From NCBI GenBank assembly GCA_018652045.1, contig JABICX010000010.1, forward strand, positions 114 to 64,113: a stretch of 64,000 bases of DNA, read 5' to 3'. The position numbers were made by a program, and so were the translations under genes. How positions within the stretch are numbered: the first letter of the stretch is position 1; each line of letters opens with the position of its first letter. The notes below the pieces were generated by a model. That model searched no databases, was not told the DNA's origin, and saw only the letters and a list, made by a program, of their open reading frames with translations. Below are positions 4,537 through 60,468 of this stretch, one piece after another. This DNA comes from Candidatus Woesearchaeota archaeon. Lineage in GTDB: Archaea > Nanobdellota > Nanobdellia > UBA10117 > JABICX01.

Positions 4537-4587
4537 GATATCTTGTATTATCGTAAGATTTAAAACATTACTGCGAGTGCAAATCTT

Positions 4588-5472
4588 ATGGTTGATTGGA
4601 TTGCGAGAATATATGAGAAAAACTACAAGAAGATGCTCATTATTCCATTAGTTATATTTATCTGCTGCCTATTGATTTTAGGCTTCTGGAAGGTAAACAC
4701 TGGTGAATTTGTAAGTAAAGACGTAACCCTGACGGGTGGTCTTATGATCACTGTGGAAACTGACCAAAACATTGACATATCTGATGCTCAGACGCAACTT
4801 TCAGACCAACTTGGTCTAAGTTCCCGAGTAAAAGAGCTAAAAAGTTATGGTGGTTCTGGAAAGTTAGGTTATACTTTTGAGGTTGAGAAAACCTCTGACA
4901 TCGACGAGGTAAAAGAAGCTATCTCTGAGATCACCGGTCTAACTTTAACTGAAGGCAGCTATACATTGGAAGAGACTAGCTCATCATTAAGTCAATCTTT
5001 CTGGAATAATACTGTTCGAGCAATATTCCTGGCGTTCTTATTTATGGCAATTGTTATCTTTTTCTACTTTAGAAAACTGGTTCCAAGTGGCGCAATAGTA
5101 CTTGCTGCATTTTCTGACTTTGTATGTACGCTAGCGATGATTAATATTCTCGATATCAAACTATCAACTGCAAGTGTAGCTGCTCTGCTTATGCTGATTG
5201 GATACTCTGTTGACTCCAACATACTTCTGTCTGTAAGAACTATAAAACGACATGAAGGAACGGTCTCAGAGCGAATATCTCGTGCATTAAAGACTGGAAT
5301 GACTATGACTGGGACAACTTTTGTTGTTTTAGCCGTTATCTATCTAATAACTCCGTCTAAGATCTTACAGCAGATCGCACTTGTCCTGGCATTTGGCCTA
5401 GCATTCGACTTTATCAACACATGGATACAGAACGCAAGCATACTACGATGGTGGTTACATAAGAATGGGTAA
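4588..5472 (+). CDS. secF: protein-export membrane protein SecF
   Basis: N-terminal TM, periplasmic-type domain and a C-terminal multi-TM SecD/SecF domain (LMLIGYSVDSNILL). 8-nt overlap with the downstream secD. The secF-secD order is typical of archaea. Confidence 0.85.
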   Translation: MVDWIARIYEKNYKKMLIIPLVIFICCLLILGFWKVNTGEFVSKDVTLTGGLMITVETDQNIDISDAQTQLSDQLGLSSRVKELKSYGGSGKLGYTFEVEKTSDIDEVKEAISEITGLTLTEGSYTLEETSSSLSQSFWNNTVRAIFLAFLFMAIVIFFYFRKLVPSGAIVLAAFSDFVCTLAMINILDIKLSTASVAALLMLIGYSVDSNILLSVRTIKRHEGTVSERISRALKTGMTMTGTTFVVLAVIYLITPSKILQQIALVLAFGLAFDFINTWIQNASILRWWLHKNG

Positions 5473-7944: not shown

Positions 7945-10524
7945 ATGGGTGACGACGATAGACGAGATCAGCTTGTTGGTAAGCTTAAAGGTTTATTTAG
8001 TGACTCTGATGATTCTGAGGGATTAAATCTTGATCAGGAAAAAGTTCTGAAATTTATTAAGGGTGAGAACTTCTACTGGTTACTATTAATACCGGTTTTA
8101 ATCATGTCTCTATACGTACGTACGCGTAATTTAGGACATCTCGGTGGCAAGTATCTACTTGGTTTAGATCCATACTCATTCTATCGCTATGCACAAGAGG
8201 TTCTTCAGACGGGTTCGATTCAATCTCCGGACATGATGCGATATGTACCGGTAGGATATGTGCTCAGAATGGACTATAAGTTCATGGGTTACTTTATGGC
8301 TTACACTTACAAAATCATTAGTGTATTTTCTTCCGCAACGCAACTCGAATGGCACATTATGTATCCACCCGTCATAACGGCTATCAGTTTAGTGTTCTTA
8401 TTCTTATTCGTCAGAAAGATCTTCGATGCAAAGGTTGCGATAGTCGCTACAGCATTCCTCGCAGTTATCCCTGCGTATATATATCGAACAGGTGCAGGTT
8501 TTGCAGACCACGAAGCACTTGCTATGCTTTTCATGTTCATATCACTGTGGTTATTCAGTCTTATGTGGACTACGAGCAATCGCATGCGTTCTATGATCTA
8601 TGGTATTAGTGCTGGAGTCTTCTCTACTGCATTGTACTTCAGCTGGCCTGGTGGTTATCGTTTCTTAACTGTCTCACTTGCCAGTCTAGCAATACTCGCC
8701 ACAGTATTTAGTAAGCCAAGTAAGACGCAAGTTATTGGGTACATAAGTTGGTTTGTCTCATTCATAGTCTTAAGTGCGATAGGGCTAAGACAGATTGCGT
8801 TTATAACTGAACTTGAGAACATAGTATTATTATTCGCAGTTATAGTCCTCATTACTAATCAGATGAAAGGTGTTCGAAGCCTGGTTGAACAAATCGGAAA
8901 GGCACTTCCATATAAGATTCCACCTGAAATCATACTTCTTGTTAGCATTGCATTGATTGGACTTATCATTGGATGGATAACCGGCATACTGGATCCTTCT
9001 TTTATCATTGACCGCCTTCTTCACCCAGGTGGAACAAGTCGATTTGCATTTACAGTTTCTGAGAACCAACAACCATACTTTATTGGTGGAAACAGTTGGT
9101 GGTCTAGCTTTACATGGACATTCCTACTCGCGTTCCTAGGTTCAATCTACATGGTCGTAAAGATGTTTAAATCAATTAAAACAGGTCTAGCTGTTGCAAC
9201 AAGTTACACGATATTCTTTGTAATATTCATATTTGGCAGATTCTCAAGTAACGCAAAATACGCACGAATTGCTAACTTCTCTACGCAAACATACTTAATC
9301 TGGTTCGCGATCTTCATGCTCACATTGTTTGGACTATACATCTTTCATTATAATAAGAATAAAAGCAAGGCTTTGGAAGTGTTCGATATTCCATGGGAAC
9401 TTCTACTCATCTTTATCTGGTTCCTATTCACTGCAATCATTGCGCGAGGCGCGGTACGAACCATCTTCTCCTTTGCTCCAGCTGTCGCGATTGTTGCAGC
9501 ATACTTCACAGTAAACCTTGCACGAGATCTATACAAACGAGGTCAGCTAGAGAAATTCCTAACGTTTATTCTCATAATCTTTATGCTATTCTGCCTATGG
9601 GGTAATGCCACACAGGCGACATATGTAAATCGTGGATCTGGTTCTGGCTTACCGGGACAATGGGAAGCTTCATTTGACTGGATACGCGAAAATACAGCGG
9701 AAAACGCAGTTATTGCACACTGGTGGGACTATGGATACTGGACACAGACTGTTGGTGAGCGAGCAACAGTTGTTGATGGTGGTAATGCTATGCAATGGGA
9801 TCATGGCATGGGTCGATATGGGCTAACACACAACAATCTTCAAGAGACTTTTGAGTATTTCAAGACGCATGAAGTTACACACCTATTAATTTCTGAGGAA
9901 GAGATATCAAAGTATCACGCATTCGCAACTATTGGGTCTGATGAAAACTTTGATCGTAAGAGTACGATAGGTATATTCACATTAAACTCACAAAATGAAG
10001 TACGCGACGGTGCGGAGTTCGTATACCGTGGTGGTTGGGGTCTAGACCAAGACCTTGTTGTAGATATGAAGGTCATACCTGAAGGTACTCCGCTAGCTGG
10101 CTTCTCAATAATTGGTAAGAATGATGGGAGTTTCCAAGCACCTGTTGCAGGATTTGTGGTCGATGGACGACAGTTCAATATGAACGTTGATTGCCTTGTT
10201 GTAAACAACGTTCGTTACGACTTCAATGTTGCTGAACCAAAGATAGAGGCATGTATTGTCTTGCTACCTTTCTTCGTTGACGAACAGAACACAAATCCAA
10301 TTGGTACTGCTTTCTTTGCTTCATCAAAAGTTCGTGATGGAAACTTAGCACGACTATTCCTATATAGCGAACAGATACCGGGTTTTACTAAAGTTTATGA
10401 TGATGGAACGCCTCTTGGAATCTACCAGGGAAGGTTGGTTGGTCCAGTCCGAATCTGGGAGATCCAATACCCTGCTGGTACGAAGACCGACGATAGATAC
10501 TTAGAAAAGAGTATTTACGGTTAA
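7945..10524 (+). CDS. aglB: dolichyl-(mono/di)phosphooligosaccharide-protein glycosyltransferase AglB (STT3 homologue)
   Basis: About 13 N-terminal TM helices. Catalytic WWDYG motif (AHWWDYGYW, near nt 9715-9735). Soluble C-terminal domain. 859 aa. Confidence 0.9.
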   Translation: MGDDDRRDQLVGKLKGLFSDSDDSEGLNLDQEKVLKFIKGENFYWLLLIPVLIMSLYVRTRNLGHLGGKYLLGLDPYSFYRYAQEVLQTGSIQSPDMMRYVPVGYVLRMDYKFMGYFMAYTYKIISVFSSATQLEWHIMYPPVITAISLVFLFLFVRKIFDAKVAIVATAFLAVIPAYIYRTGAGFADHEALAMLFMFISLWLFSLMWTTSNRMRSMIYGISAGVFSTALYFSWPGGYRFLTVSLASLAILATVFSKPSKTQVIGYISWFVSFIVLSAIGLRQIAFITELENIVLLFAVIVLITNQMKGVRSLVEQIGKALPYKIPPEIILLVSIALIGLIIGWITGILDPSFIIDRLLHPGGTSRFAFTVSENQQPYFIGGNSWWSSFTWTFLLAFLGSIYMVVKMFKSIKTGLAVATSYTIFFVIFIFGRFSSNAKYARIANFSTQTYLIWFAIFMLTLFGLYIFHYNKNKSKALEVFDIPWELLLIFIWFLFTAIIARGAVRTIFSFAPAVAIVAAYFTVNLARDLYKRGQLEKFLTFILIIFMLFCLWGNATQATYVNRGSGSGLPGQWEASFDWIRENTAENAVIAHWWDYGYWTQTVGERATVVDGGNAMQWDHGMGRYGLTHNNLQETFEYFKTHEVTHLLISEEEISKYHAFATIGSDENFDRKSTIGIFTLNSQNEVRDGAEFVYRGGWGLDQDLVVDMKVIPEGTPLAGFSIIGKNDGSFQAPVAGFVVDGRQFNMNVDCLVVNNVRYDFNVAEPKIEACIVLLPFFVDEQNTNPIGTAFFASSKVRDGNLARLFLYSEQIPGFTKVYDDGTPLGIYQGRLVGPVRIWEIQYPAGTKTDDRYLEKSIYG

Positions 10525-15229: not shown

Positions 15230-16026
15230 ACACCCACCCCCATAAATCTCGTATGCGCTTTTTTCCAGACAAGTAAGCTCATTCCGAAGAATGCTGCGGT
15301 CCATATAACTTGTACAAGTATAAGATTCATAACCTCAACTGTAGAATATGTTCCTAAGAAAGTCTGGATTGGCACATATAGCATATACTGAAATGGCATG
15401 TACTTCGAGATAGTCTGTAAAGATGATGGGAAAAAAGTAAGAGGTATTACTGATCCTGCGAAAAACATGTGTATTCCTTGGCGAATTGATTTAATACCCC
15501 AATATTCTTTTGTCCAGAAAGAAATTAGTCCAAACAAGAATGTGAAGCTGAAACGTATTGTTATCGCAAATATTACAGTTATTATAAAGAAAAGCAAATT
15601 TAATGAGGTATACTCAAAAGAAGGTATTGTAAAGTACCCAATGATTAGTAATATCGGTAAAAACTTTACTCTAAAAACTGCTCGCCAACAATTTCGGATA
15701 AACGAGTATGTTAAAAAATTAATTGGTCTAACAAGGTGCTTTATGAACTTTCCATTTTTGACGGATCGAGATATTTCTGAGTCAACTCGACAGCTTGTTA
15801 CTGCTTGAACAATATGTGAGAGGAAAAAGTAGATAACTATTCCACTAAAGGTAAAACCCCTGATAATTTCTTGAGTACTTACTGAAAAGATTGCTCTCCA
15901 AAGAAAATACTCTACTAAAAAGAACGCTGGAACTAAAAGCATCCAGATAAACGAATCTAAACGATACACATTTTCTTCACTAAATTGAATCTTGGCGAAA
16001 CCAAGCAACGTTCTAACGAGTCCCAT
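15226..16026 (-). CDS. ABC-2 type transporter permease (COG4587-like)
   Basis: Six-TM ABC-2 permease. 14-nt overlap with the upstream ATPase gene. Confidence 0.7.
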   Translation of the reverse strand: MGLVRTLLGFAKIQFSEENVYRLDSFIWMLLVPAFFLVEYFLWRAIFSVSTQEIIRGFTFSGIVIYFFLSHIVQAVTSCRVDSEISRSVKNGKFIKHLVRPINFLTYSFIRNCWRAVFRVKFLPILLIIGYFTIPSFEYTSLNLLFFIITVIFAITIRFSFTFLFGLISFWTKEYWGIKSIRQGIHMFFAGSVIPLTFFPSSLQTISKYMPFQYMLYVPIQTFLGTYSTVEVMNLILVQVIWTAAFFGMSLLVWKKAHTRFMGVGV

Positions 16027-16999
16027 GTTGATATATATCCCGAATTATCTCTTCAATATCAGGGTCAGAGATCGTAATGTCTGCCACTGGGTACTCGCCA
16101 ACCAACTTAGCTACAAAGGGGTCCAACTTATTGTTTTTTAATGGAACCTCAAACTTAATTGTATAGGGTGTTTTATCAATTAAGGTACATCTTTTTGGCA
16201 AACTAACATGTGTTTTCTCTTCAAACCTTACCTCAATTAATTTATTGGTTACATATTTCTTACAGAGATCTGCTAAAGGTCCATCGTAGACAATATCACC
16301 TGTATTGATTATGATTACTCGCTTACACAGCTTTTCAATGTCCTGCATGTCGTGGGTTGTTATGATAAACGTAGTATTGTAGTCCTTATTGATTTGTTTA
16401 ATAAAATTGTGGAGTTGCTTCTTCGCAACAACATCCATCCCAATTGTTGGTTCATCAAGTAAGACAAGTTTTGGTTTATGTAATAGTGCTGCAACAACCT
16501 CGCACTTCATTCGCTCACCAAGACTTAAACCTCGAGTTGGTCGTTTGTATATGTCTTCTAAACTCAACAACTTTACCATATGTGCCAATCTACGCTTAAA
16601 GGTCTCTTCAGGAATATCATACAAAACTTTTAGCAAATGATATGTATCATTTGGTGGAATGTCCCAAGCCAGTTGAGACTTCTGTCCAAATACTACTCCA
16701 AAATTATAAGCATATTCTTGACGTTGTTTCCAAGGAACATACCCAAGTGATTTTACTTCGCCAGAGGTGGGGTACAGAACGCCACATAAAACTTTAATTG
16801 CTGTTGATTTACCAGCACCATTTGGTCCAATTAAACCAATAACCTCGCCAGTCTTAATCTCAAAATCAATTCCTTTAAGCGCGTGCTTTATCTTGAAGTC
16901 CCTTTTGAAAAGTGATCTGATGGATGCTCTAAAACTTTCCTCGCGAGAGTAAGTTTTATACTCCTTCGCTAAACCGCTAACCTTAATAGCAGTTTCCAT
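16013..16999 (-). CDS. ABC transporter ATP-binding protein
   Basis: Walker A GPNGAGKST, signature LSLGERMK, Walker B LVLLDEPTIGMD and a C-terminal extension, as in COG4586 ATPases. Confidence 0.9.
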   Translation of the reverse strand: METAIKVSGLAKEYKTYSREESFRASIRSLFKRDFKIKHALKGIDFEIKTGEVIGLIGPNGAGKSTAIKVLCGVLYPTSGEVKSLGYVPWKQRQEYAYNFGVVFGQKSQLAWDIPPNDTYHLLKVLYDIPEETFKRRLAHMVKLLSLEDIYKRPTRGLSLGERMKCEVVAALLHKPKLVLLDEPTIGMDVVAKKQLHNFIKQINKDYNTTFIITTHDMQDIEKLCKRVIIINTGDIVYDGPLADLCKKYVTNKLIEVRFEEKTHVSLPKRCTLIDKTPYTIKFEVPLKNNKLDPFVAKLVGEYPVADITISDPDIEEIIRDIYQHGTR

Positions 17000-49691: not shown

Positions 49692-49915
49692 ACTTTGTCC
49701 AAGGTGTTAAAGATGGCTTCAAAGAATTTGGTGAGCGAGTTACTTCAGTAGTTAACTTCGTGCTACTACTAATTGTGTATGTTATTGGTGTTGGTATCAC
49801 GACGATACTAGCAAAGATCACAAAGCAGAAATTATTAGATTTTAGTTTTAAGGACGGTCGAGATAGCTACTGGGTAGATCATAAAGAGGAGGTTGATTAT
49901 ACAAAACAATTTTAA
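49688..49915 (+). CDS. small membrane protein associated with the carbamoyltransferase
   Basis: MNFVQGVKDGFKEFGERVTSVVNFVLLLIVYVIGVGITTILAKI...SYW...QF. One TM helix. Ends 1 nt before the carbamoyltransferase ATG. Confidence 0.45.
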   Translation: MNFVQGVKDGFKEFGERVTSVVNFVLLLIVYVIGVGITTILAKITKQKLLDFSFKDGRDSYWVDHKEEVDYTKQF

Positions 49916-49916
49916 A

Positions 49917-51671
49917 ATGTATATTTTAGGAATCTCTTGTTATTATCATGATGCGTCGGCAGCGCTCCTAAAAGATGGAGTTATCGTAGCTGCTGCAGAA
50001 GAAGAACGATTTACGCGGAAGAAACATGATATTAGTTTTCCAACTAACGCGATAAACTATTGTTTGAAGGAGGTAGGTATATCTGCAGATAAACTTGATT
50101 ACGTAACTTTTTACGAAAAACCTTTCTTAAAGTTTGAACGGATTTTATATCAACACATAACTATGTTTCCACGTAGTTTCTGGTCGTTTTACAAGACAGT
50201 ACCTTCATGGGTAAATGAGCGTCTACGAATACGTCGAATGTTAAAGAAAACGTTAAAGTATGACGGAAAAGTTTTCTTTGTAGAACATCATCAAGCACAT
50301 GCAGCATCTTCATATCTAATAAGTCCTTTTGACAAAGCCGCATTGTTAACTGTTGATGGTGTTGGTGAATGGGCTACAACAACCTTTGGATATGCTAAAG
50401 GAACAGATTTGAAGATTATGAAGGAGATTAACTTTCCACATTCATTGGGTTTGTTATATAGCGCAGTAACTGCCTATCTTGGTTTTAAGGTAAATAATTC
50501 AGAGTATAAGGTCATGGGTTTAAGTCCATATGGAAATCGAACAAAGTCTAACCCATATTATGCTAAGATGCGTAAGTTGATTGATATTAAACCTGATGGA
50601 AGTTATGCTTTAGATATGAGTTACTTTGTTTATCATTATAAAATGTCTATGCCAAGCTCTAAGTTTGTCAAAGTGTTTGGACCTACACGTAAATGGAGCG
50701 ATCCTTTAACAAAGCGACACAAAGATATTTCTGCAGCATTACAGATGGTAACTGAAGAAGCTATCTTTGCGATGCTGAATAGTCTATACAAAGAGACAAA
50801 GTGTACGAATCTGTGTATAGCGGGCGGGTGCGCACTTAATAGTGTTGCTAATGGTAAACTCTTACGAAATACGCCATTTAAGAAAATCTATATTCAACCA
50901 TCTGCGGGAGATGGTGGCACAAGTATGGGCGCAGCACTTTATACCTATAATGTAATACTTGGAAAAAAGAAACGTTATGTTTTAACTGACGCGTTCTTTG
51001 GACCGCAGTTTACTGATCGACAGATTAAGAAGTTCTTAGATCGGAACAAGATTAAGTATACACAGTTTAAGAGCGATAAAGAGTTAGTCAAGACGGTTGC
51101 TTCGTTGATTAAGACTGAGAATGTTATTGGCTGGTTCCAAGGAAGAATGGAATGGGGACCTCGTGCATTGGGTGCTAGAAGCATATTATCTGATCCAACA
51201 AATCCAAAGATGCAAGATATCCTAAACTTAAAAGTAAAACATCGAGAGAAGTTTAGACCTTTTGCACCCGTTATCTGTGCAGATGATGCTAAAACTTATT
51301 TTGAGTGTGATGAACCTGTGCCAGTTCCAACCGACTTTATGTTAATGGTTTATCCAATTAAGAAGTTCGCACGATCTAAAGTACCCTCAATAACACACGT
51401 TGACGGATCGGGTAGATTACAGACGATCCGCCGAAAAGATAATCAACTTTATTATGATCTGATCAAAGAGTTCGGCAAGATATCAAAAATACCGATCTTG
51501 ATTAATACTTCATTCAATATCCGTGGCGAGCCAATCGTATGTACGCCATTCCATGCATATCGTTGTATGATGGGAACTGGAATTGATTATCTAGTTATGA
51601 ATCGGTTCTTTATCGGTCGAGCAGATAACCCACAACACATGTGGGATAGTGAGAGCCATGCGAAGGATTGA
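49917..51671 (+). CDS. carbamoyltransferase (NodU/CmcH family)
   Basis: MYILGISCYYHDASAALLKDG, EERFTRKKHD and HHQAHAASS. C-terminal domain GRMEWGPRALGARSIL and TSFNIRGEPIV. The track start at 49893 is TTG. Confidence 0.9.
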   Translation: MYILGISCYYHDASAALLKDGVIVAAAEEERFTRKKHDISFPTNAINYCLKEVGISADKLDYVTFYEKPFLKFERILYQHITMFPRSFWSFYKTVPSWVNERLRIRRMLKKTLKYDGKVFFVEHHQAHAASSYLISPFDKAALLTVDGVGEWATTTFGYAKGTDLKIMKEINFPHSLGLLYSAVTAYLGFKVNNSEYKVMGLSPYGNRTKSNPYYAKMRKLIDIKPDGSYALDMSYFVYHYKMSMPSSKFVKVFGPTRKWSDPLTKRHKDISAALQMVTEEAIFAMLNSLYKETKCTNLCIAGGCALNSVANGKLLRNTPFKKIYIQPSAGDGGTSMGAALYTYNVILGKKKRYVLTDAFFGPQFTDRQIKKFLDRNKIKYTQFKSDKELVKTVASLIKTENVIGWFQGRMEWGPRALGARSILSDPTNPKMQDILNLKVKHREKFRPFAPVICADDAKTYFECDEPVPVPTDFMLMVYPIKKFARSKVPSITHVDGSGRLQTIRRKDNQLYYDLIKEFGKISKIPILINTSFNIRGEPIVCTPFHAYRCMMGTGIDYLVMNRFFIGRADNPQHMWDSESHAKD

Positions 51672-51678: not shown

Positions 51679-52719
51679 ATGTTGAAAGTGAGACAGATGT
51701 TTATCAACCTAGTTTTGCTAGCTTTTGTTTTAGTTATTATGTTAAGTTTATTTGAGGGTGGATTGCGTGTTATTTCGTCGCACGAACGTGATATGATATC
51801 AACACCAAATGGATACGTATACAAACCAAACTCGACAATAGTGTATGAGACCGAGCATTTTTCAAACACGTACGAAATTAATTCAGAAGGTTTTGTTGAT
51901 TATGATCATGAACTAACATCTGAAAAGTATCGTATTGCTTTACTTGGAGATTCGTTTATTGAGGCGACACAGGTTCCGTTTGATCTTGCATTACCAAGAC
52001 TTATGGAATCCGTGGATGTGGAAGTTATGAGTTTTGGTCTAAGTGCGATTGGAACAAGTCAGGAGTTAATCATCTTTAACGAGTATACTTCAAAGTATCG
52101 TCCAGATGCTGTTGTGTTGTTTTTCTTTGCAGGAAATGATTTGATAAACAATCATTACGACTTGCAAGATGATGTATATCGTCCATACTATGTTCTTGAA
52201 GATGGTGAACTTCAGTTAGTGCGATATGAACCAACATTACGTGATCGTGCAATAAAGTTAGCTAAGAAAAGTTATGCTATACGGTTCTTTAACACAAAGT
52301 TTCAGATACTTTTAGGTACTAAGAATACGCAGGGTGGCGCAGTTGCAAAGTATTATGTTTATGATGATGAGTGGCCCAAAGCATATGTTGAATCTTGGGA
52401 GGTTACACAAAAAGTTATCTTACAGCTTCAACAAGATGTTGAGAAAGATGGCGCAGAGTTTTTGTTAGTTGTTGTTAATGGTCCCGAACATGTTGACTCT
52501 ACGATTCGAGAGGAGGTAGAAGGATTAATTGGTACGCCACTAAACTGGACCCTACCAAATGATAAAATGCAAGTTTTCTGTGAGACTAATGAGATACATT
52601 GTATTGATCTAAAAGACCATTTCGTACAAGCTTCTTTGCACATAGAAGGCAATGGACATTGGAGTGAAGAAGGACATCGTTTAGTTTCAGAAGTTGTATT
52701 AGACGCACTTCGCTATTGA
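51679..52719 (+). CDS. membrane-anchored SGNH/GDSL-type hydrolase or acyl-esterase
   Basis: N-terminal TM (FINLVLLAFVLVIMLSL). Block I RIALLGDSFIEA. Later GND block (FFAGNDLINN). C-terminal GHWSEEGH. The exact start is uncertain (51649 GTG, 51658, 51679 or 51697). Confidence 0.6.
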   Translation: MLKVRQMFINLVLLAFVLVIMLSLFEGGLRVISSHERDMISTPNGYVYKPNSTIVYETEHFSNTYEINSEGFVDYDHELTSEKYRIALLGDSFIEATQVPFDLALPRLMESVDVEVMSFGLSAIGTSQELIIFNEYTSKYRPDAVVLFFFAGNDLINNHYDLQDDVYRPYYVLEDGELQLVRYEPTLRDRAIKLAKKSYAIRFFNTKFQILLGTKNTQGGAVAKYYVYDDEWPKAYVESWEVTQKVILQLQQDVEKDGAEFLLVVVNGPEHVDSTIREEVEGLIGTPLNWTLPNDKMQVFCETNEIHCIDLKDHFVQASLHIEGNGHWSEEGHRLVSEVVLDALRY

Positions 52720-53619
52720 TCTAACTTTGTTTAGGTTCTTAACTTTAGATTTGTTTACAAATAATAAGTTCATTATACCGTTGTTGTAATCACCGTATTC
52801 TTTGATCTGTGTGAAGTTATGATTGTCAAAGAAGTCCAGTACATCTTGATAATAAAGTGGGGTTGTCTCAAGTACGACATACTTTGTGTTCTTGATAGAA
52901 GAAGTCATTCCTTTCAAAACAGATAGTTCATGACCCTCTACATCAATCTTTACCATATCTACTTTGAGTTTAAGCGAGTCAAACTTTTTAGTTTTGATAG
53001 ATATCTGACGTACGTATTTATTCTGAGTGTATTTTTGAAAGTTTGAGTCTAAACTGTGACTCCCATCATTTTCATCACTCAAGGAAATCTTTGCAGTTGA
53101 GTTTTTGTTTGATAATGCAAAGTCGTGTACTTTGACATTGTTGAAATTATTTAGTTTTATGTTGCTTTTTAGTTCTTTAAGTGCAGAAGGAACGGGTTCA
53201 AATGCATATACTTGCTTACAGACACTAGCAGCCATGAGCGCAGTCTGACCAATGTTTGCGCCAATATCTGCATAGGTACTTTTCGTATCGAGTAGTTTAG
53301 TGATGAGTAGACCGAGATCGTCGTTGTTGTCCTTGTATAAGAAAAGCCGACCAACAAAACTTCGTAGATTAAGTCTAAGTTTGTAATTGAGTTTCTTATC
53401 TTTAATGTATATGTAATCTCGTGTCACATAGATATCTTTTTTAAGATCTTTAAGTGACGCGTTTAGAAAATGAAATGCAAAGTGCTTTACATACGAGTTT
53501 CTAAGTTTGTAATAATGCTGCTTAGCTAGTTGAATTCTCAACGCTAGTGGTAAGAACGTGAGTAGTCTTCCGATTGACTTAAACCCATAACTCATTACAT
53601 TTAGTGGCTTTATGCGCAT
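52699..53619 (-). CDS. FkbM-family SAM-dependent methyltransferase
   Basis: YADIGANIGQTALMAA ... AFEPVP ... IDVEGHELSVLKG are FkbM signatures. Start moved to the ATG at 53619 (MRIKPLNV), because the 412-aa track ORF overlaps the divergent gene at 53723 by 215 nt. Confidence 0.7.
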   Translation of the reverse strand: MRIKPLNVMSYGFKSIGRLLTFLPLALRIQLAKQHYYKLRNSYVKHFAFHFLNASLKDLKKDIYVTRDYIYIKDKKLNYKLRLNLRSFVGRLFLYKDNNDDLGLLITKLLDTKSTYADIGANIGQTALMAASVCKQVYAFEPVPSALKELKSNIKLNNFNNVKVHDFALSNKNSTAKISLSDENDGSHSLDSNFQKYTQNKYVRQISIKTKKFDSLKLKVDMVKIDVEGHELSVLKGMTSSIKNTKYVVLETTPLYYQDVLDFFDNHNFTQIKEYGDYNNGIMNLLFVNKSKVKNLNKVRSIAKCV

Positions 53620-53722
53620 GTATGAAAGCAAGGAAGTGTGGTTATTAATGTTTCCATAGCTGAATATAGATATATGTTTGAGTTTGATAAATATTATAAA
53701 CGTTACTGCGCGATAATAATCG

Positions 53723-54892
53723 ATGGTAGATAGTACGCATAGATTAAACTTCGTTTTAGATATTGATGGAGTGCTAACTACAGGTAAGTTTCTGTATGAC
53801 GAGAACGGTAAGGCATACAAAGAGTTCGGTCCGCATGATGCGGACGGTTTAAAATTAGTTAAAGATAAAGTTAACATAACTTTTGTTACTGCAGATAAGC
53901 GAGGGTTTCCAATATCGTCAAAACGTATAACTGACATGGGATATCCAATTAAGTTATCTACCGAGAAAGATCGATATAATCAATTTAAGAACGACTTCGG
54001 TTTTAGTAATACTATTTTTATGGGTGACGGACTTCATGACGCACCAGTTTTGAAAGATTGCATGTTTGGCGTTGCACCCGCTAATGCTCGAAAAGAGGCA
54101 AAGCAGGCAGCAGATTTTGTAACGGAGTCAAAGTCTGCAGAGGGCGCAGTACTTGACGCTTGTATTGAGATCAATCGGAGATTTTTGCAAGGAGATAAAC
54201 TAAAATATAAAGTTTGTATCTTAGCTGCAGGAAAAGGTAGCCGAATGTCAGACTTTTGTGAGGTTTACAACAAAGCAATAATACCTGTTCAGGGTAAACC
54301 TGCAATATGTCATATTATTGAAAAGTTTCCAGAAGATGTTGAGATTGTAATTGCAGTAGGTTACAAGAAAGAAAGTATAAAGCACTACTTAAATTACGCA
54401 TATCCAAAACGTAAGATAACGTATGTGGAAGACTTTGAACTTAAAGGTCCGGGATATTCTTTGCTAAAATGTAAAGACCATCTTCAGAGTCCTTTCATTT
54501 TCTTTGCAGCGGACACACTTGTTAGAGAACCAATACCTTTGCCAGACAAAAACTGGTTTGGACTTACAGAAGTAAAAAATACTGAACGGTTCTGTTCAGC
54601 ATCCGTTACAGGAGATAAGATCTCACGCGTTGATGATAAGGTAAAGACTGACAATAAGTACGCATTTATTGGTTTAGCAGGCGTTTATGATTGGGAGTTT
54701 TTTTGGAACAGACTTACATCAAACGACCAAATCATTGCTGGCGAGATTCAGGTTTCAAATGGCTTTAGGGCTTTAATGGGAAAAGACATGTTTGCGGAGT
54801 ACTTTACTTGGTTTGATGTGGGCGTTCCAGAGGCATATGCATATGCGTTAGAGAACTTTCCTTTTGGTGAATCTTACAGGGGCGAAGATTAG
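53723..54892 (+). CDS. bifunctional KdsC-type HAD phosphatase / sugar-phosphate nucleotidyltransferase
   Basis: Residues 1-155: FVLDIDGVLTTG...DGLKL...FMGDGLHDAPVL...GAVLDAC (YrbI/KdsC subfamily). Residues about 161-389: KVCILAAGKGSRM (IspD/LicC-type loop) and a GT-A-like nucleotidyltransferase fold. Confidence 0.75.
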   Translation: MVDSTHRLNFVLDIDGVLTTGKFLYDENGKAYKEFGPHDADGLKLVKDKVNITFVTADKRGFPISSKRITDMGYPIKLSTEKDRYNQFKNDFGFSNTIFMGDGLHDAPVLKDCMFGVAPANARKEAKQAADFVTESKSAEGAVLDACIEINRRFLQGDKLKYKVCILAAGKGSRMSDFCEVYNKAIIPVQGKPAICHIIEKFPEDVEIVIAVGYKKESIKHYLNYAYPKRKITYVEDFELKGPGYSLLKCKDHLQSPFIFFAADTLVREPIPLPDKNWFGLTEVKNTERFCSASVTGDKISRVDDKVKTDNKYAFIGLAGVYDWEFFWNRLTSNDQIIAGEIQVSNGFRALMGKDMFAEYFTWFDVGVPEAYAYALENFPFGESYRGED

Positions 54893-54894
54893 AT

Positions 54895-55674
54895 ATGTTA
54901 GAGACAGCAAAGCTAGCAGCTAAGGAAGCTGGTAAAGTTATTTTAAAATACTTTAACCAAGATGTTGTTTTTTCTGAGAAAGAAGATAAGACGGTTGTCA
55001 GTATCGCTGACGAAGAATCTGAACAAGTAATAATAAAAACAATTAAAGAAAAGTTTCCAGATCATTCTATAAATGGTGAAGAAACTGGTCGAACAGGTGA
55101 TAGTGATATTGTTTGGCATGTAGATCCGTTAGATGGTACGAGTAATTTCAAAAACAAAATACCTTTTTCAACAGTTTCTATTGGTGTAGAGAAAGCAGGC
55201 AAGTTTATTTTAGGCGTAATCTATAATCCTTTTACTGACGAGTTGTTTTACGCAGAACTTGGAAATGGCGCGTATCTTAATGAGCTAAAGATACAAGTTA
55301 CAGACCTAAAGCTTTCAAAAGGCGCAGTAGTTTTAGACGCATCTTTTAGAGATGATCGAGCACATCGTAAGCTTAAGACGCAGGAAGAACTTCTGAATCA
55401 TACATCAAAGTTTAGAATGCTCGGCAGTAACGCACTACAATTGGCTGAACTTGCAAAAGGCCAGTATGTTTGTTCTATTTCTGACGCAATTCATACATAT
55501 GACTTTGCAGCAGGATTGGTTATTATTCGTGAGGCGGGCGGCGTTGTTACTGATCAATATGGTAATGAACCAACGGTGGATTCTGTTGTGATTGTAGCCA
55601 CAAATAATGTTGATAACCATGGAAAAGTTATAGATATAACCAAAAGAACCTATGCGGGATACAAAGGGATGTAA
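54895..55674 (+). CDS. inositol monophosphatase family phosphatase (IMPase/FBPase-like)
   Basis: WHVDPLDGTSNF and YDFAAG motifs. 259 aa. Starts 2 nt after the upstream stop. Confidence 0.85.
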   Translation: MLETAKLAAKEAGKVILKYFNQDVVFSEKEDKTVVSIADEESEQVIIKTIKEKFPDHSINGEETGRTGDSDIVWHVDPLDGTSNFKNKIPFSTVSIGVEKAGKFILGVIYNPFTDELFYAELGNGAYLNELKIQVTDLKLSKGAVVLDASFRDDRAHRKLKTQEELLNHTSKFRMLGSNALQLAELAKGQYVCSISDAIHTYDFAAGLVIIREAGGVVTDQYGNEPTVDSVVIVATNNVDNHGKVIDITKRTYAGYKGM

Positions 55675-55706
55675 AGTATATAATCTAGTTCTATAAATCT
55701 TATAAA

Positions 55707-55721
55707 CGTCGACGCTTTTTT
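55707..55721 (+). terminator. possible transcription stop: 8-bp palindrome CGTCGACG followed by a T6 run
   Basis: aaaCGTCGACGcTTTTTTag lies in the only sizeable intergenic gap (55675-55785) of the 53.7-60.5 kb gene string. Archaeal termination commonly uses oligo-T. Confidence 0.3.
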
Positions 55722-55785
55722 AGATACGTCAGCAGATAAGGATGCATGTGGCATCGAGATGGCTGTATTGTTGAGGTTGAGAAGT

Positions 55786-57375
55786 ATGGACTATAAGATT
55801 TGTATTTTAGCCGCAGGTATTGGTAGTATGAGTGAACTTACAAAAGATATTCATCATTCTATTCTTCCAGTTAACTTTAAGGCGACGTTATCGTATATAT
55901 TTGAAAAATTTCCAAAAGACGTAGAGGTTGTAATCGCAGTAGGGTACAAGAAAGAAACAATTAAAGAATATTGTTCTTTAGCACATCCCGATAGAAAGAT
56001 AACTTACGTTGATATAGAAAAGTACTTTGGACCTGGAACTGGTCCTGGACAGTCTTTACTTGAATGCCGTCCACATCTAAATTGTCCTTTTGTGTTCTTC
56101 GCAGCAGACACAATTGTGTTGGAGGAAGTTCCTAATCCCGATAGAAATTGGTTTGGTATTGCTCCAGTTAAGAAGACAGAAGATTTCTGTACAGTTAGAA
56201 TTAAGAACAACTTGATATATCATCTAGACGACAAAGTAAAAGTAGATAATAAGTTCGCATTTATTGGTTTAGCGGGAGTAAGAGACTATGACGTTTTCTT
56301 CAACGCTCTTGAACAAGATAAGACCATTAAGAAAGGAGAGATTCAGGTTTCAAATGGTTTTAGCAAACTCATCGAGAAGAAGTTGGTTCCGATTGGTTTT
56401 ACTTGGTTTGATACAGGTAGACCTGAAAGTTACAAAGAGACAAACAAAAGTTTTTCAGAGGGCAGCAAGTTTGATTTTAGTAAGAGTAACGAGTTTATCT
56501 ACTTTGTAAATAATAAAATTGTAAAGTACTTTGCAAATCCCGAGATTATTGAGAAGCGGTATAAACGCGCACAAATACTTAAGGGACTTTGCCCAGATAT
56601 TGAGGCAAAGACTCCGAACTTCTATTCCTATGAACGCGTACCGGGTCAGGTTCTCTACGATGTGTTGAATTCGTCAGTTGTTACTGACTTTTTTGAGTGG
56701 TCTAAAAATAACATCTGGAGAAAGATAGATATATCTAAAAAAGACCAGAAAGTTTTCAATCAAGCTTGTAAGAAATTCTACTATGATAAGACAATGAAGC
56801 GATTGGACATGTTTTACGACAAACTAAAGGTTGACGATACGCAGAACAACATTAATGGAGTTGTTGTTCCACCACTTAAAGATATGTTTGATAAGATTAA
56901 CTGGGATGAACTTTACAAAGGCGTTCCCGTTAAATTCCATGGAGATTTACAGTTTGACAATATCCTTGTTACACGAGATCCGAAAAGTAACTTGTCTAAG
57001 TTTGCACTACTTGATTGGCGGCAAGATTTTGGTGGATTAACTGATTATGGTGATCTATACTATGACCTGTCAAAGTTGTATGGTGGCGTTACGTTATCCT
57101 ACAAAGAGATAAAGGCGGGGAACTTCTCTTTTGATCGTAGTGGTACCAGCGTCTATTATAACTTCAGCGTAAAGAACGATCTATTAGATGCAAAAGAAGA
57201 ATACGAGTCATTCTTGGATCGAAACAAGTTTGATATGGAGAAGATTAAGATCTTAAGAGCGCTGATATATCTTAACATGTCTCCTTTGCATCACACTCCA
57301 TTTGATCTTATGTTGTACTACATGGGCAAAGTTATGTTGTATAAAGCATTGAAGGAGTTTGGGAGGATTAAATAA
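55786..57375 (+). CDS. bifunctional nucleotidyltransferase / APH-choline-kinase-like phosphotransferase (LicC-LicA-like architecture)
   Basis: N-terminal domain is paralogous to the C-terminal domain of 53723..54892 (KICILAAGIGS..., VIAVGYKKETIK, FFAADTIV, FAFIGLAGV, GEIQVSNGF). C-terminal kinase domain has HGDLQFDNILV and LLDWRQDFGG. The ATG at 55786 (MDYKICIL) is preferred to 55759. Confidence 0.7.
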   Translation: MDYKICILAAGIGSMSELTKDIHHSILPVNFKATLSYIFEKFPKDVEVVIAVGYKKETIKEYCSLAHPDRKITYVDIEKYFGPGTGPGQSLLECRPHLNCPFVFFAADTIVLEEVPNPDRNWFGIAPVKKTEDFCTVRIKNNLIYHLDDKVKVDNKFAFIGLAGVRDYDVFFNALEQDKTIKKGEIQVSNGFSKLIEKKLVPIGFTWFDTGRPESYKETNKSFSEGSKFDFSKSNEFIYFVNNKIVKYFANPEIIEKRYKRAQILKGLCPDIEAKTPNFYSYERVPGQVLYDVLNSSVVTDFFEWSKNNIWRKIDISKKDQKVFNQACKKFYYDKTMKRLDMFYDKLKVDDTQNNINGVVVPPLKDMFDKINWDELYKGVPVKFHGDLQFDNILVTRDPKSNLSKFALLDWRQDFGGLTDYGDLYYDLSKLYGGVTLSYKEIKAGNFSFDRSGTSVYYNFSVKNDLLDAKEEYESFLDRNKFDMEKIKILRALIYLNMSPLHHTPFDLMLYYMGKVMLYKALKEFGRIK

Positions 57376-58367
57376 TGCAGCGAGAGTTGGGTGTGGGACC
57401 TATGAGTCCAGAAATTATCGAAGCTATCTTCCGTTACTCGCATTACAATCGAACGCCTCTCATGATAATTGCATCTAAAAATCAGATTGACCATAATGGT
57501 GGATATGTGAATGGTTGGAATACAAAACAATTTATGGATTTTGTAAAAGATTTGAAAGGAACATATTCAAATAGTAACGTTATGATTTGCAGAGATCATT
57601 GCGGTCCGGGTTTTAATGGTATATATGATACTGAAGATACGTATAAGACAATTAAAACTGATATTGAAAACGGGTTTGATTTTATTCATATAGACTTTTG
57701 TAAACATAAAGGCGCTCGGGATGAGCGACTAGATGAAGCAAAAAAAGCAATTCAGTATTGTCTGAAGTTGAACCCAAACATTGTGTTAGAGATTGGAACT
57801 GATGAGAATGAAGGTGATCAGTTTAGTATTACAAACTTGCAAGAAGTTAAAGAAGAGGTGGAATTCTTCACAAACTTTTGTAAGCCTAAGTACTATGTTG
57901 TTCAGACTGGAAGTTTGGTAAAAGAGATAAATCAAGTTGGTGGTTTTAATCAGGAGTTCATAGAACGTATTCGTGAATTTTTGAAGTCCAAAGATATTAA
58001 ATTAAAAGAACATAATGCAGATTATTTCTCAAAGGATCAGATAGAGACGCGTAATGGTGTGGTAGACGCGTTGAACATTGCACCGCAGCTCGGTGCTTTG
58101 CAGACGATGCTTGTACTTCAAAAGTGTATAACTTACGGCGTTGATTTTGACGAATTTATTGAAGAAGCGTATAATAGCAAGAAATGGGAAAAGTGGCTAC
58201 ATACCAACAAGCCAGATAACAAGTTCTTGTGCGCAGTAATTGCAGGACACTATAACTTTACAACCGATTCGTATCGTAAGATTATAGAACAGCTTGAAGC
58301 TAGAGAAGATATTCATGAATTTATAATGGATAAAGTCATGGAGGTAATTGATCATTATGTTAACTGA
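57375..58367 (+). CDS. GatZ/KbaZ-like class II aldolase-family TIM-barrel protein (shortened)
   Basis: [33 protein letters not shown] and [10 protein letters not shown] align with E. coli GatZ blocks [31 protein letters not shown] and GFSKIHLDAS. The ATG overlaps the upstream TAA (TAATG). Confidence 0.6.
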
Positions 58368-59085
58368 AATGTTACAGGGAAAGCGAATACTTATTACAGG
58401 ATCTTCTCGAGGAATTGGCGCTGCAATCGCAAGACTTGCAAAGCAATATGGTGCTGAAGTAATCCTTCACGGGAAGACGGAATCTAATGCACTGATAAAT
58501 TTAGCACAAGAACTTAATTCAAAATATATTTTTTGTGATGTTATTGACGAAGTTGCTGTGACTTCTGCGATAACTAATCTTGGGAATGTAGATGTGCTAG
58601 TTAATAATGCGGGAATAAATCCGTCAAAGACTTTTGTTCAGTTAACAAACGAAGATTGGCGGTCTATTTTTGAGATTAATGTTATGGGTACAGTTAACTT
58701 TTCTAGGGCGTTTATCTCAAACATGTCAGATAAAAAGCGCGGAAAAGTAATAAACATAGCATCTATTAAAGCATACAATTCAGTTTCAGGTAAGCCTAGT
58801 TACGCCGCATCTAAGGCAGCAGTTATGCGAATAACGTCTAGTATGGCTGAAGAGTTTGCACCACATGTTCTTGTTAATGCTGTTGCTCCAGGATTTACCC
58901 AAACAGAGATGACTCAATCAACATTATCTCCAAAGATTCAGAAACAGATTGATAGTATCCCATTAAAGAGAATGGCGCAACCAAAAGAAATAGCAGAAAC
59001 AGTTCTGTTTTTAGCAAGTGATAGGTCTAGTTATATCACAGGACAAACAATATTAGTTGACGGAGGTTATACAATAAATGGATAA
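58357..59085 (+). CDS. short-chain dehydrogenase/reductase (FabG-like)
   Basis: [19 protein letters not shown], and S...YAASKAA catalytic residues. Start is at 58357 or 58369 (the track TTG at 58348 is unlikely). Confidence 0.85.
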
Positions 59086-59596
59086 GGATAATACTGAAGC
59101 AGCCGCTTCAAAAAATAAAGACGTAGGTGTTAAGGTGTGGCATTCTAACTTGCCAAGACCGCCCGGGTACGAAGAGTATAAGTTTCCATGTAAAATAGAT
59201 AAACCTTGGGGTTGGGAACGTTGGTTAGAACTTTGGCACGATCCAGAGCTTAGACGTGGATACTGCATGAAACATCTATTCATCAAGAAAGGTACGCGAA
59301 CTAGCTTGCAGAGACATAAGTTAAAGATAGAAACTAATTTTCTTATTCAAGGAAAGGTTGAAGCATATCTCGAGAACGAAGCTGGTGAGATGGAGATGCG
59401 CATAATGGAGGCAGGTAATCCTACATGCGATACTTGGACAATACCTACTGATAAGACACATAGAATTTACGCTCTAACAGATATTTATTTAGTAGAAGCG
59501 TCAACGCACGATGTTGATGATGTTACGCGGATGGCAGATGATTCTGGGCGTGGAAGTGGTAAGATAGATTCTGAGCACGATCGAGCAAAAGAATGA
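59078..59596 (+). CDS. cupin-domain protein (type II phosphomannose-isomerase-like cupin)
   Basis: KPWGWERWL ... [23 protein letters not shown] resembles the PMI-type cupin pattern (PWG ... SLQ.H..R.E.W.V..G). 8-nt overlap upstream and an ATGA overlap downstream. Confidence 0.65.
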
Positions 59597-60468
59597 AAGT
59601 ATCATATGTTATGAAGATAGGTCCAAAGTATACTTGGCGAGTATTGCGAGGAAAGTTGCGAAGGTTACCGCGTTACAAAGCTTCAAAACCACCACGCGTC
59701 GCGTTTTGCTTATGTGGTTTAGTTGGTGGTATAACGGGTAAGGCTGGAGATAATCTAGCAAGTTCTGTGGATGTTCTAAAAATCGGTTATGATCAATATA
59801 AGAAACATATCTTTGATAAGAACAATGTGGACGTGTTTGTACATAGTTGGAGTACCGACCTTAAGGCAGATATAAAGAAACTGTACAAACCAAAGAAGTC
59901 GCTGTTTGAGACGAATCGGCCCTTCAAGTACCCCTCTTACGCAAAAGGTGAGCCTAGAAGAATCAGCAATCACTATAGTAGGTGGTATAGCACCCAGAAA
60001 GCTATTGAATTGAAAGCTAAGTACGAGAAAGAGCAGGGTTTCAAGTATGATTTTGTTATGGTTATTCGCTTTGATTTAGCCCCACAGAAAGATATACTAT
60101 TTGATCGAATAAATCCTAAGTACTTTTACGCAGCTAACTGGTACAGTAACGCACCTTTATTTGGAGTAATTCCTATAAACGTATTACAAGGATATCCTTA
60201 TACCGGTATGAGTGGTCTGGCTGATCTTTGGTTCTTTTCAAACTCAAGGTACATGGATAGGTTTGCAAAGTTGTACGATAAGTTGGATGAATATAACAAG
60301 CCAGGTAGCTGTCCTTTAGGAAAACAAGGAATATCTAACCATATACTTTCAGGGTATCATCTGCAACAGAGCGGCATAATAAAAGACCTTAGGTTTATCT
60401 ATAATCAGTATGGACCTAATGAGACGATGCCATTAATCCGAAAGAAATACTTTGGATCTAAAATCTAA
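59593..60468 (+). CDS. hypothetical protein (291 aa), last gene of the operon
   Basis: Coupled by an ATGA overlap to the cupin gene. Contains VAFCLCGLVGG, DVFVHSW and VIRFDL blocks. No family recognised. Confidence 0.5.
   Translation: MKVSYVMKIGPKYTWRVLRGKLRRLPRYKASKPPRVAFCLCGLVGGITGKAGDNLASSVDVLKIGYDQYKKHIFDKNNVDVFVHSWSTDLKADIKKLYKPKKSLFETNRPFKYPSYAKGEPRRISNHYSRWYSTQKAIELKAKYEKEQGFKYDFVMVIRFDLAPQKDILFDRINPKYFYAANWYSNAPLFGVIPINVLQGYPYTGMSGLADLWFFSNSRYMDRFAKLYDKLDEYNKPGSCPLGKQGISNHILSGYHLQQSGIIKDLRFIYNQYGPNETMPLIRKKYFGSKI

Follow-up and report, generated by a model that had tools for sequence, protein, structure and literature searches.

A widely transferred six-function cassette in a woesearchaeal glycan island, proposed to build and activate a rare sugar

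What product is made by a run of seven head-to-tail open reading frames (ORFs) that combines familiar enzyme superfamilies in an unfamiliar way? The ORFs in question occupy positions 53,723 to 60,468 of a 64,000-nucleotide stretch of DNA from a Candidatus Woesearchaeota archaeon (assembly GCA_018652045.1, contig JABICX010000010.1), the whole of which we call the window. An earlier sequence-only reading saw here a tightly coupled operon for nucleotide-activated head groups, in which a sugar phosphate is made or epimerised, isomerised or reduced, dephosphorylated, re-phosphorylated and finally activated with a nucleoside triphosphate (NTP). Here we report that the operon has at its core one copy of an uncharacterised six-function cassette that has been transferred widely. 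We propose, with a probability of roughly 0.6, that the cassette turns a central ketose phosphate into a rare sugar, which it activates as a single nucleoside diphosphate (NDP)-sugar for the surrounding glycan island.

All seven ORFs were recovered in place and on the forward strand. ORF1 (53723-54892) encodes a KdsC-like HAD phosphatase fused to a nucleotidyltransferase (NT); ORF2 (54895-55674), a phosphatase of the inositol monophosphatase (IMPase)/FBPase family; ORF3 (55759-57375 from its first possible start, with 55786 preferred), an NT fused to a kinase; ORF4 (57375-58367), a shortened GatZ/KbaZ-like TIM barrel; ORF5 (58348-59085, probable start ATG 58357 or 58369), a classical FabG-like short-chain dehydrogenase/reductase (SDR); ORF6 (59078-59596), a metal cupin of the phosphomannose isomerase (PMI) type; and ORF7 (59593-60468), an orphan of 291 residues. 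Six of the seven domain calls in the earlier reading stand, with profile scores below threshold for the kinase half of ORF3 and for ORF6 in the window proteins. The core proteins reach no NCBIfam equivalog—their PGAP names include 'NTP transferase domain-containing protein', and NCBI annotates ORF4 and ORF7 as hypothetical proteins.

The operon is real: its gene set recurs, far beyond chance, in hundreds of unrelated genomes. Homologues of the NT-kinase fusion form more than 1,792 protein clusters, and the top 120 clusters are full-length, 59-69% identical to the window protein, and drawn from woese-, pace- and nanoarchaea, Diapherotrites and Patescibacteria. A scan of one genome for each of about 185,000 species detected relatives in 245 of them, including DPANN archaea, many lineages of the Candidate Phyla Radiation (CPR), Omnitrophota, SAR86, Pelagibacteraceae, Halieaceae, Legionella/Legionellales, Bdellovibrionota, Elusimicrobia, Desulfatibia, Planctomycetota, Dehalococcoidia and Gemmatimonadota. 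A scan of IMG/VR returned 162 contigs that encode a full-length relative, 31-39% identical; the best 80 of these were taken as viral loci (L084-L163), their viral status being that of the IMG/VR classification.

Partner genes were counted in complete loci, defined as those with at least 5 kb on either side of the NT-kinase gene (52 cellular, 60 viral). A GatZ-like gene is present in 50 of the cellular and 51 of the viral loci, a cupin in 51 and 56, a dehydrogenase in 44 and 55, and a phosphatase in 47 and 54; all four partners occur together in 38 of the 52 cellular loci. Gene fusions bring the same functions into single polypeptides. NT-kinase-GatZ triple fusions are found in two metagenome-assembled genomes (MAGs; L048 and L049), and a triple fusion with the cupin N-terminal to the NT-kinase is found in 55 of the 80 viral loci, followed by genes for a shikimate dehydrogenase (SDH)-like protein, a GatZ-like protein and a protein of 120 residues. 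Phosphatase-NT fusions such as ORF1 add a third kind, and together these fusions tie the roles into one pathway; in Omnitrophota, the cupin is also fused to a GT2 glycosyltransferase. The series of roles sketched in the sequence-only reading is thus co-conserved and repeatedly fused.

How many products does the locus activate? The two NT domains of the window had been read as two separate activation enzymes for one or more head groups, a claim that fails on the active site of ORF3. The N-terminal domain of ORF3 (55786-56490) is an NT, as proposed, with an RmlA/MurU-like fold: it matches NCBIfam Arch_glmU at 1e-13, with all NCBIfam scores far under the equivalog cut-offs, and the top Foldseek match of the ORF3 AlphaFold2 model (pLDDT 80) is MurU, followed by RmlA and GalU (E=1e-10; target-normalised TM-score ~0.7). 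In sugar-1-phosphate NTs a G-x-G-x-R...K signature contacts the NTP, as is established for RmlA-type enzymes. In ORF3 this signature is degenerate (AAGIGS-MSELTKDIHHSILP; GIGS-MS...HHS)—the Arg is deleted and the Lys replaced, while the fold is retained and the domain is still about 65% identical to active relatives. The C-terminal domain of ORF1 (54197-54892), here called NT2, has the signature intact (GKGSRM...NKA, within AAGKGSRM...YNKAIIP); it matches Pfam NTP_transf_3 at 7e-11 and, in NCBIfam, Arch_glmU, AglF, RmlA and HddC. The two domains are close paralogues, with their profiles (O1_NT and O3_NT) cross-matching at 1e-70 to 1e-100.

Signature loss follows a pattern across the family. 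Among 77 loci, the kinase-fused NT has lost its signature in 16 of the 20 loci with a second NT, versus 2 of the 57 without one (p=5e-11 by a Fisher test that ignores phylogeny), and one of the two exceptions sits at a contig end. At least six different degenerate patterns are seen, which implies several independent losses. Viral loci carry no NT2, and there the signature is intact in 79 of the 80 copies, that is, in all 79 complete ones. Because signature loss tracks the presence of a second NT, the C-terminal half of ORF1 is probably the working NT of the window locus and the ORF3 domain is probably catalytically inactive, kept as a structural module; a single activated product, with the second NT taking over the same reaction, is the likelier outcome. 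The coupling of motif loss to NT2 gain looks like a natural example of a catalytic domain becoming a pseudo-enzyme module (L004-L061).

At least four unrelated types of enzyme serve as the phosphatase: the KdsC-type HAD, two mini-HAD clades of 120 residues, a HAD_2 phosphatase and IMPase. In the window, the role would fall to the N-terminal domain of ORF1 (53723-54196; residues 1-158), a cap-less KdsC-type HAD domain of about 160 residues with motif I (DIDGVLT; DxDG) and motif IV (GDGLHD; GDxxxD). Pfam and NCBIfam bear out the earlier description of ORF1 as a KdsC-like HAD joined to an NT. The HAD half matches Pfam Hydrolase_3 and the KdsC-type model TIGR01670 (2.9e-17, 63 bits against an equivalog cut-off of 107), and lies far under the cut-offs of the KdsC and KDN-9-phosphate phosphatase equivalogs; judged by these scores, it is a KdsC-like fold and not a KdsC orthologue. 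Stand-alone orthologues of this domain lie beside the NT-kinase in 45 of the 52 complete cellular loci. The fusion partner of NT2 varies by lineage, being a KdsC-type HAD in the window and L046, an IMPase in L013 and a HAD_2 phosphatase in L012 and L015; in other loci, NT2 is also fused to methyltransferase or WavE domains. ORF2 is an IMPase-family protein, as first described (Pfam Inositol_P, PF00459, 7e-60, 203 bits against a cut-off of 27), and reaches no NCBIfam equivalog. With strong homologues in 4 of the 52 complete cellular loci, it is a lineage-specific accessory—an extra phosphatase that travels with NT2.

The 120-residue proteins of the viral loci are minimal HAD phosphatases that fall into two related clades, linked by hhalign at 97.5% probability. 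One clade matches Pfam Acid_phosphat_B and HAD_PNKP; a DxDxT motif and a weak NCBIfam match to the EcbF-BcbF 'capsule biosynthesis phosphatase' were also found. The idea that viruses dispense with the HAD was rejected, as the mini-HAD occupies its slot.

The C-terminal domain of ORF3 (56491-57375) is a divergent kinase resembling aminoglycoside phosphotransferases (APH) and choline kinases. The motifs uphold this earlier call, and the profile match is weak: the window protein scores 17.6 bits against a PF01636 cut-off of 23.2, with weak matches in 12 of 12 family members (best 5e-6). Invariant in all 22 sequences compared are the catalytic loop HGDLQFDN (H-x-D-x-x-x-x-N) and LLDW, with its downstream metal-binding Asp; LLDWRQDFGG and GDLYYDL (pattern DW...GDxYYDL) are invariant as well. 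The AlphaFold2 model has pLDDT above 85 across the kinase half, and a fold search with the whole of ORF3 gave only NT-domain matches among the 50 matches listed. We propose that this domain is an anomeric sugar kinase.

ORF4 had been called GatZ/KbaZ-like, and the call holds on both sequence and fold (PF08013, 2e-11, 43.6 bits against a cut-off of 26.7; TM-score 0.83 to GatZ, PDB 2fiq). Foldseek places 2fiq first for the AlphaFold2 model (pLDDT 87), followed by class II fructose-bisphosphate and tagatose-bisphosphate (FBA/TBP) aldolases, SqiA and YdjI. GatZ and KbaZ interconvert fructose-6-phosphate (fructose-6-P) and tagatose-6-P as C4 epimerases, probably by a Zn-dependent retro-aldol/aldol mechanism; the residues proposed for GatZ are a catalytic Asp87 and the metal ligands His88, Glu171 and His257, with Cys20, Glu44 and Lys279 as family-specific residues that line the substrate (PMC11907403). 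D74, H75, D143 and H213 of ORF4 align with GatZ D87, H88, E171 and H257, an alignment that for the C-terminal half was made through MAFFT motifs and bridging long forms and not by structural superposition; across 17 cassette members these four positions are either unchanged or conservatively replaced, D143 being Glu in the long forms. Profile alignment of the ORF4 family to GatZ by hhalign covers the first ~100 residues only, and the match to GatY is insignificant. On this alignment ORF4 appears to keep the catalytic machinery, and its substrate or stereochemical outcome may differ; we propose that it is a ketose-phosphate C4-epimerase or an aldolase.

ORF5 is indeed a classical SDR (Pfam adh_short_C2, PF13561, 2e-58, 198 bits), with YAASK and the full classical motif set (TGxxxGxG, NNAG, YxxxK). 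The dehydrogenase gene of the cassette is an SDR in 22 loci or SDH-like in 37, and the two are never found together; this mutual exclusion points to analogous enzymes that fill one step. The SDH-like gene (9168-9989 in L001, and in 36 other loci; 9517-10161 in viral contig L092) encodes a protein that is closest to HI0607 SdhL (PDB 1npy, 2e-51) and keeps the catalytic Lys and Asp. The S-x-S motif that binds the shikimate carboxylate is replaced in the L001 sequence, the only one read for it. At 202.2 bits the protein is just over the cut-off of the TIGR00507 aroE domain model (200.2), and annotation pipelines are expected to name it 'shikimate dehydrogenase'; the carrier lineages are not known to have a shikimate/aromatic amino-acid pathway as context for it. 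One member of the SDH family, 5-ketofructose reductase (PDB 7cok; PMC7954740), reduces a keto-sugar, and by analogy with it keto-sugar reduction is a plausible role for the cassette dehydrogenase.

For ORF6, the PMI-type call draws on the metal ligands and on relatives that pass the profile threshold, and the window protein itself remains below it (PF01050, 17.5 bits against 23.6). Orthologues score 26-32 bits with the same model, and the best curated match is that of the L001 orthologue to NCBIfam GMP_PMI (9.5e-9). The Q-x-H/E/H ligands Q78, H80, E85 and H128 are invariant, as are K42, K65, K83, R129, R151 and R158. The PDB profile matches are generic cupins, with PMI, D-lyxose isomerase and cupin-type phosphoglucose isomerase (PGI) lower in the list. 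We propose that ORF6 is an aldose-ketose isomerase.

From these roles we infer a route, and with it substrates, an order of steps, a nucleotide-linked product and candidate sugars. ORF4 would remodel a ketose phosphate by metal-dependent retro-aldol/aldol chemistry, either as a C4 epimerisation of the kind that turns fructose-6-P into tagatose-6-P or as a true aldol condensation. The dehydrogenase (ORF5 here, SdhL-type elsewhere) would reduce a keto group on the sugar, and is the step whose place in the order is least certain. The ORF6 cupin would then turn ketose into aldose; acting on tagatose-6-P with PMI-like stereochemistry, it would give D-talose-6-P. The HAD half of ORF1 would take off the non-anomeric phosphate, the kinase half of ORF3 would phosphorylate the anomeric hydroxyl, and the NT—in the window, the C-terminal half of ORF1—would make the NDP-sugar. 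Phosphatase and kinase could act in either order, as in MupP/AmgK or as in HldE/GmhB; an HldE/GmhB-like order of kinase, phosphatase and NT fits, since there are three independent phosphatase-NT fusions. In a variant of this route, ORF4 would work as an aldolase to give a keto-ketose for the dehydrogenase to reduce, and all six roles would be used once.

Several observations weigh against this proposal. ORF4 differs from GatZ at the substrate-lining positions (C20 to G8, E44 to I32, K279 to N234), and may catalyse something other than fructose-6-P/tagatose-6-P epimerisation or a standard aldol reaction. The simplest epimerase route has no strict need of the dehydrogenase, which is missing from some complete loci, for example those of a Micrarchaeia group. 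The anomeric specificity of the kinase is argued by analogy with AmgK, NahK, MtnK and Mak, and neither ORF3 nor the kinase-domain profile found a PDB sequence match for the kinase, even at E=10. Additionally, ORF6 has a weak WbuC-type match and could act on an NDP-sugar, and the single product leans on the phylogeny-blind Fisher test.

A more specific version of the proposal is tentative, and we put its chances somewhat short of even: that the cassette is a dehydratase-independent route, run at the level of sugar phosphates, to an undescribed nucleotide sugar that would be a shared surface decoration of DPANN, CPR, some marine bacteria and their phages. The candidates are an NDP-D-talose-type hexose, reached via tagatose-6-P, and a deoxy- or L-hexose, reached via aldol condensation and SdhL-type keto-reduction. 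If true, this would give a first physiological role to the orphan SdhL (HI0607) class and to the new GatZ-like clade.

The alternative that survives best, while unlikely, is that the product is a nucleotide-activated polyol or cyclitol phosphate for a teichoic-acid-like head group, on the logic of CDP-2-glycerol, CDP-ribitol, CDP-glucitol and CDP-inositol. The dehydrogenase would reduce a ketose or ketose phosphate to an alditol or cyclitol, phosphatase and kinase would reposition the phosphate, and the NT would yield a CDP-alcohol. Such a route makes sense of a dehydrogenase that is nearly universal (44/52 and 55/60 complete loci), of the IMPase in the window and of weak NT matches to inositol-1-phosphate and ribitol-5-phosphate cytidylyltransferases, and APH-family kinases do phosphorylate non-anomeric hydroxyls of cyclitols and alcohols. 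A gene for a CDP-alcohol phosphatidyltransferase lies ~10 kb upstream in L001; however, such transferases are not consistently linked to the cassette. The best structural and profile matches of the NTs are sugar-1-phosphate NTs (MurU, RmlA, GalU, GlmU-N, HddC), the PMI-type isomerase is as conserved as the dehydrogenase and would have no role in making a polyol, and the dehydrogenase itself is absent from some complete loci.

A further step down in probability, the cassette could lead, by a mutase-independent bypass, to an ordinary nucleotide sugar, GDP-mannose or UDP-galactose for example, and so serve cells with reduced central metabolism, as DPANN and CPR metabolism is. Fructose-6-P would pass through mannose-6-P (by the PMI cupin) and mannose-1-P to GDP-mannose, with the GatZ-like enzyme and IMPase supplying hexose phosphate from trioses. 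The cupin speaks for this: its best family match is the PMI domain of bifunctional PMI-GMP (PMI joined to GDP-mannose pyrophosphorylase), and the cupin-NT fusion mirrors type II PMI-GMP; the IMPase/FBPase family is also present in the window. Distribution speaks against it. A supply route for a common sugar is hard to square with a cassette that is patchy (245 of ~185,000 species genomes), lies within variable glycan islands and occurs too in phages and in Legionella, SAR86, Pelagibacteraceae and Halieaceae, bacteria for which standard routes are the usual source of common sugars; the bypass would also leave the dehydrogenase and the GatZ-like step unexplained.

Two distinct head groups made by two active NTs, one arm being of the LicC-LicA (phospho-aminoalcohol) type, are highly improbable: the window does have two NT domains and the NT-APH-kinase architecture resembles LicCA, but the ORF3 NT lacks the catalytic Arg and Lys in a loss that tracks the second NT, the two NTs are closely related paralogues, fusions in other lineages join the NT-kinase to GatZ-like or cupin sugar enzymes, and the flanks of the window, L001 and L002 hold no LicB- or LicD-type genes. 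Just as improbable is a phage- or conflict-related donor for DNA or virion glycosylation, with cellular copies acquired from viruses, since the 162 IMG/VR contigs, one sorted Caudoviricetes genome and a very high cross-domain identity that suggests recent mobility are set against cellular cassettes lying among flippases, GT-C/PMT_2 proteins and GT2/GT4 glycosyltransferases, and viral copies likewise flanked by glycosyltransferases, aminotransferases and sugar dehydratases. The single NDP-sugar stays our preferred reading.

The locus itself is less uniform than a single seven-gene unit. The tight packing described earlier holds at five junctions: a 2-nt gap at ORF1/2, overlaps of 1 nt at ORF3/4, 8 nt at ORF5/6 and 4 nt at ORF6/7, and at ORF4/5 either an overlap or a 1-nt gap, depending on the start codon chosen for ORF5. 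It fails at ORF2/3, where the gap is 84 nt up to the first ATG (55759) or 111 nt up to ATG 55786; the latter start is preferred because it is preceded by GAGGTTGAG (GAGG) and because the conserved N-terminus MxYK(V/I)CILAAG begins there. A TATA-like 10-mer, TTATAAACGT, has only two copies in the window, both on the forward strand, although at least two matches arose in 5 of 100 shuffles. The first copy (53694-53703) lies 20 nt upstream of the ORF1 ATG and is a candidate archaeal promoter of ORF1-2; the second (55700-55709) lies in the ORF2-ORF3 gap, with a T6 run after it, and marks a candidate internal promoter and terminator region. With two such promoters there are probably two transcription units, ORF1-2 and ORF3-7. 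This gap with its promoter-like motif, and the presence of IMPase and ORF7 in only 4 of the 52 complete loci each, leave the uniform seven-gene unit unsupported. Rfam and tRNA scans of the window gave no match.

The glycan-island setting is borne out by the domains on either side, which include two PMT_2 GT-C proteins, an extended SDR, a carbamoyltransferase, a GDSL-like protein, an FkbM methyltransferase, a Wzx-type flippase and a GT4 glycosyltransferase. Through an N-terminal extension, the FkbM methyltransferase ORF (52699-53937, reverse strand, 412 residues) shares 215 nt with ORF1. Homologues elsewhere have 257-275 residues and lack this extension; translation probably begins at an internal Met, in which case there is no real overlap.

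ORF7 is as unrecognised as the sequence-only reading found it: profile searches gave no family match, and neither ORF7 nor three other recurrent neighbour families matched Pfam at E up to 10. It has only 64 homologous clusters, all annotated as hypothetical, and a faint DUF7796 match. Among complete loci, 4 of the 52 cellular and 25 of the 60 viral ones have a homologue adjoining the cassette. ORF7 is a lineage-specific accessory, possibly the transferase for the product. The carbamoyltransferase gene (49893-51671, forward strand) lies 2 kb upstream of the operon (Pfam Carbam_trans_N 5e-85, Carbam_trans_C 2e-69), and a counterpart near the cassette was detected in 4 of the 52 cellular and 11 of the 60 viral loci that are complete; that of L025 matches the window protein at 1e-243. 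Carbamoyltransferase and ORF7-like genes recur by the cassette in archaea, bacteria and viral contigs (L002, L025, L091-L095, L128, L149-L162, L164), which hints at an O-carbamoylated sugar, with the ORF7 family as its transferase.

The viral copies have islands of their own. Marine virus AG-345-E15 (MH319741, L164, 12001-13831), a single-particle-sorted and amplified member of the Caudoviricetes, carries the cassette as genes for a mini-HAD, the NT-kinase, a GatZ-like protein, a cupin, an ORF7-like protein and a carbamoyltransferase. The flanks of viral contigs resemble glycan islands, with glycosyltransferases, aminotransferases and sugar dehydratases. Contig L092 encodes in its flanks (3705-5332, reverse strand; 15710-16264) a GDP-mannose-4,6-dehydratase-like SDR, a split thiamine pyrophosphate (TPP)-dependent enzyme of transketolase/E1-like type and a 2-oxoglutarate (2OG)-Fe(II) oxygenase, which suggests further unusual sugar tailoring in these islands. 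Among cultured phages, the nearest NT relatives are cyanophage 'putative nucleotidyltransferases' (records H17-H25), 34-37% identical over ~105 residues; these (for example in Synechococcus phage S-CAM1, ~114.1 kb) adjoin genes annotated as phosphoheptose isomerase and heptose 6-epimerase.

Several MAGs labelled as uncultured Pseudomonadales, Gammaproteobacteria, Bdellovibrionales or Methanosarcinales (L014, L019, L022, L023, L025, L030, L049 and L067) carry cassettes 59-65% identical to the archaeal one (47% in L049), most with the gene order of CPR loci. Such similarity points to unreliable taxonomic labels or else to very recent transfers.

Very little is known of the surface chemistry of DPANN archaea and CPR bacteria, which live attached to other cells. 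A cassette that is 60-70% identical across two domains and also present in marine phages is a testable handle on a surface sugar of these organisms. Solving it would give a function to two clades, that of the NT-kinase (more than 1,700 clusters) and a new GatZ-like one, and probably also to the SdhL class; in carrier genomes, the annotations 'tagatose-bisphosphate aldolase non-catalytic subunit' and 'shikimate dehydrogenase' are misleading.

How does the cassette compare with known systems? The earlier reading could match the gene set to no known pathway, and this still holds: we found no curated family or paper that assigns it, and literature searches returned no description of it. Pathways to nucleotide-activated decorations include LicC-LicA (CDP-choline) and Gtp1-3 (CDP-2-glycerol). 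Both pair an NT with a kinase that is APH-like (putatively so in Gtp1-3), and Gtp1-3 has a reductase in addition. The likeness to LicC-LicA noted earlier is sound as architecture and fails for phosphocholine, as the fold neighbours of the NT and its gene partners are sugar-phosphate enzymes; LicA/LicC phosphocholine synthesis was rejected, with no LicB transporter or LicD transferase domains in the flanks of the window, L001 and L002. A CMP-Kdo/KDN pathway was also rejected, the NT not being of KdsB/NeuA type and the KdsC score being far under its cut-off.

The closest precedent for dephosphorylation, re-phosphorylation and activation in series, as the earlier reading had them, is the characterised MupP-AmgK-MurU route of N-acetylmuramic acid (MurNAc) recycling in Pseudomonas, in which MurNAc-6-P becomes MurNAc, then MurNAc-1-P and finally UDP-MurNAc (PMC5371407). 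The three roles proposed for the cassette, and the superfamilies that would carry them, are the same (HAD phosphatase, APH-like anomeric kinase, small RmlA-type NT). In contrast to that system, the kinase and NT are fused in the cassette, the phosphatase is of KdsC type or a mini-HAD and not of MupP type, and no sequence similarity could be detected between the kinase and those of known structure; the cassette route is also apparently de novo, with GatZ-like, cupin and dehydrogenase steps first, and not salvage.

The NDP-heptose pathway runs through the isomerase GmhA, the kinase HldE or HddA, the phosphatase GmhB and the NT HldC or HddC, HldE being a kinase-NT fusion. Both systems would pair a ketose-phosphate to aldose-phosphate isomerase with an anomeric kinase, a distal phosphatase and an NT, and both fuse kinase to NT; however, no enzyme is homologous (cupin versus SIS, APH-like versus ribokinase/GHMP, KdsC/mini-HAD versus HisB-type HAD), and the GatZ-like and dehydrogenase roles are extra in the cassette. 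Canonical GDP-heptose synthesis was rejected for the window: there are no orthologues, HddC matches are weak (43 and 26 bits against a cut-off of 300), and SIS, ribokinase and GHMP domains are absent.

Type II PMI-GMP (ManC/AlgA/XanB) likewise joins an NT and a PMI-type cupin (Q-x-H/E/H) in one pathway and, as in the viral cupin-NT proteins, in one polypeptide. The cassette differs in its reversed domain order, its extra kinase, the lack of a linked phosphomannomutase and scores far under the equivalog cut-offs. ORF4 shares with GatZ/KbaZ (PDB 2fiq, 3txv) a TM-score of 0.83, the Asp-His pair, the acid and second-His ligands, and the VVQxG and xDY motifs, but is ~90 residues shorter, sits in a biosynthetic and not a catabolic setting, and has no GatY partner. 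Where other loci have a relative of HI0607 SdhL and 5-ketofructose reductase, the window carries an SDR analogue in its place. Each enzyme comes from a known superfamily and the logic of activation is known; it is the combination for which no description was found.

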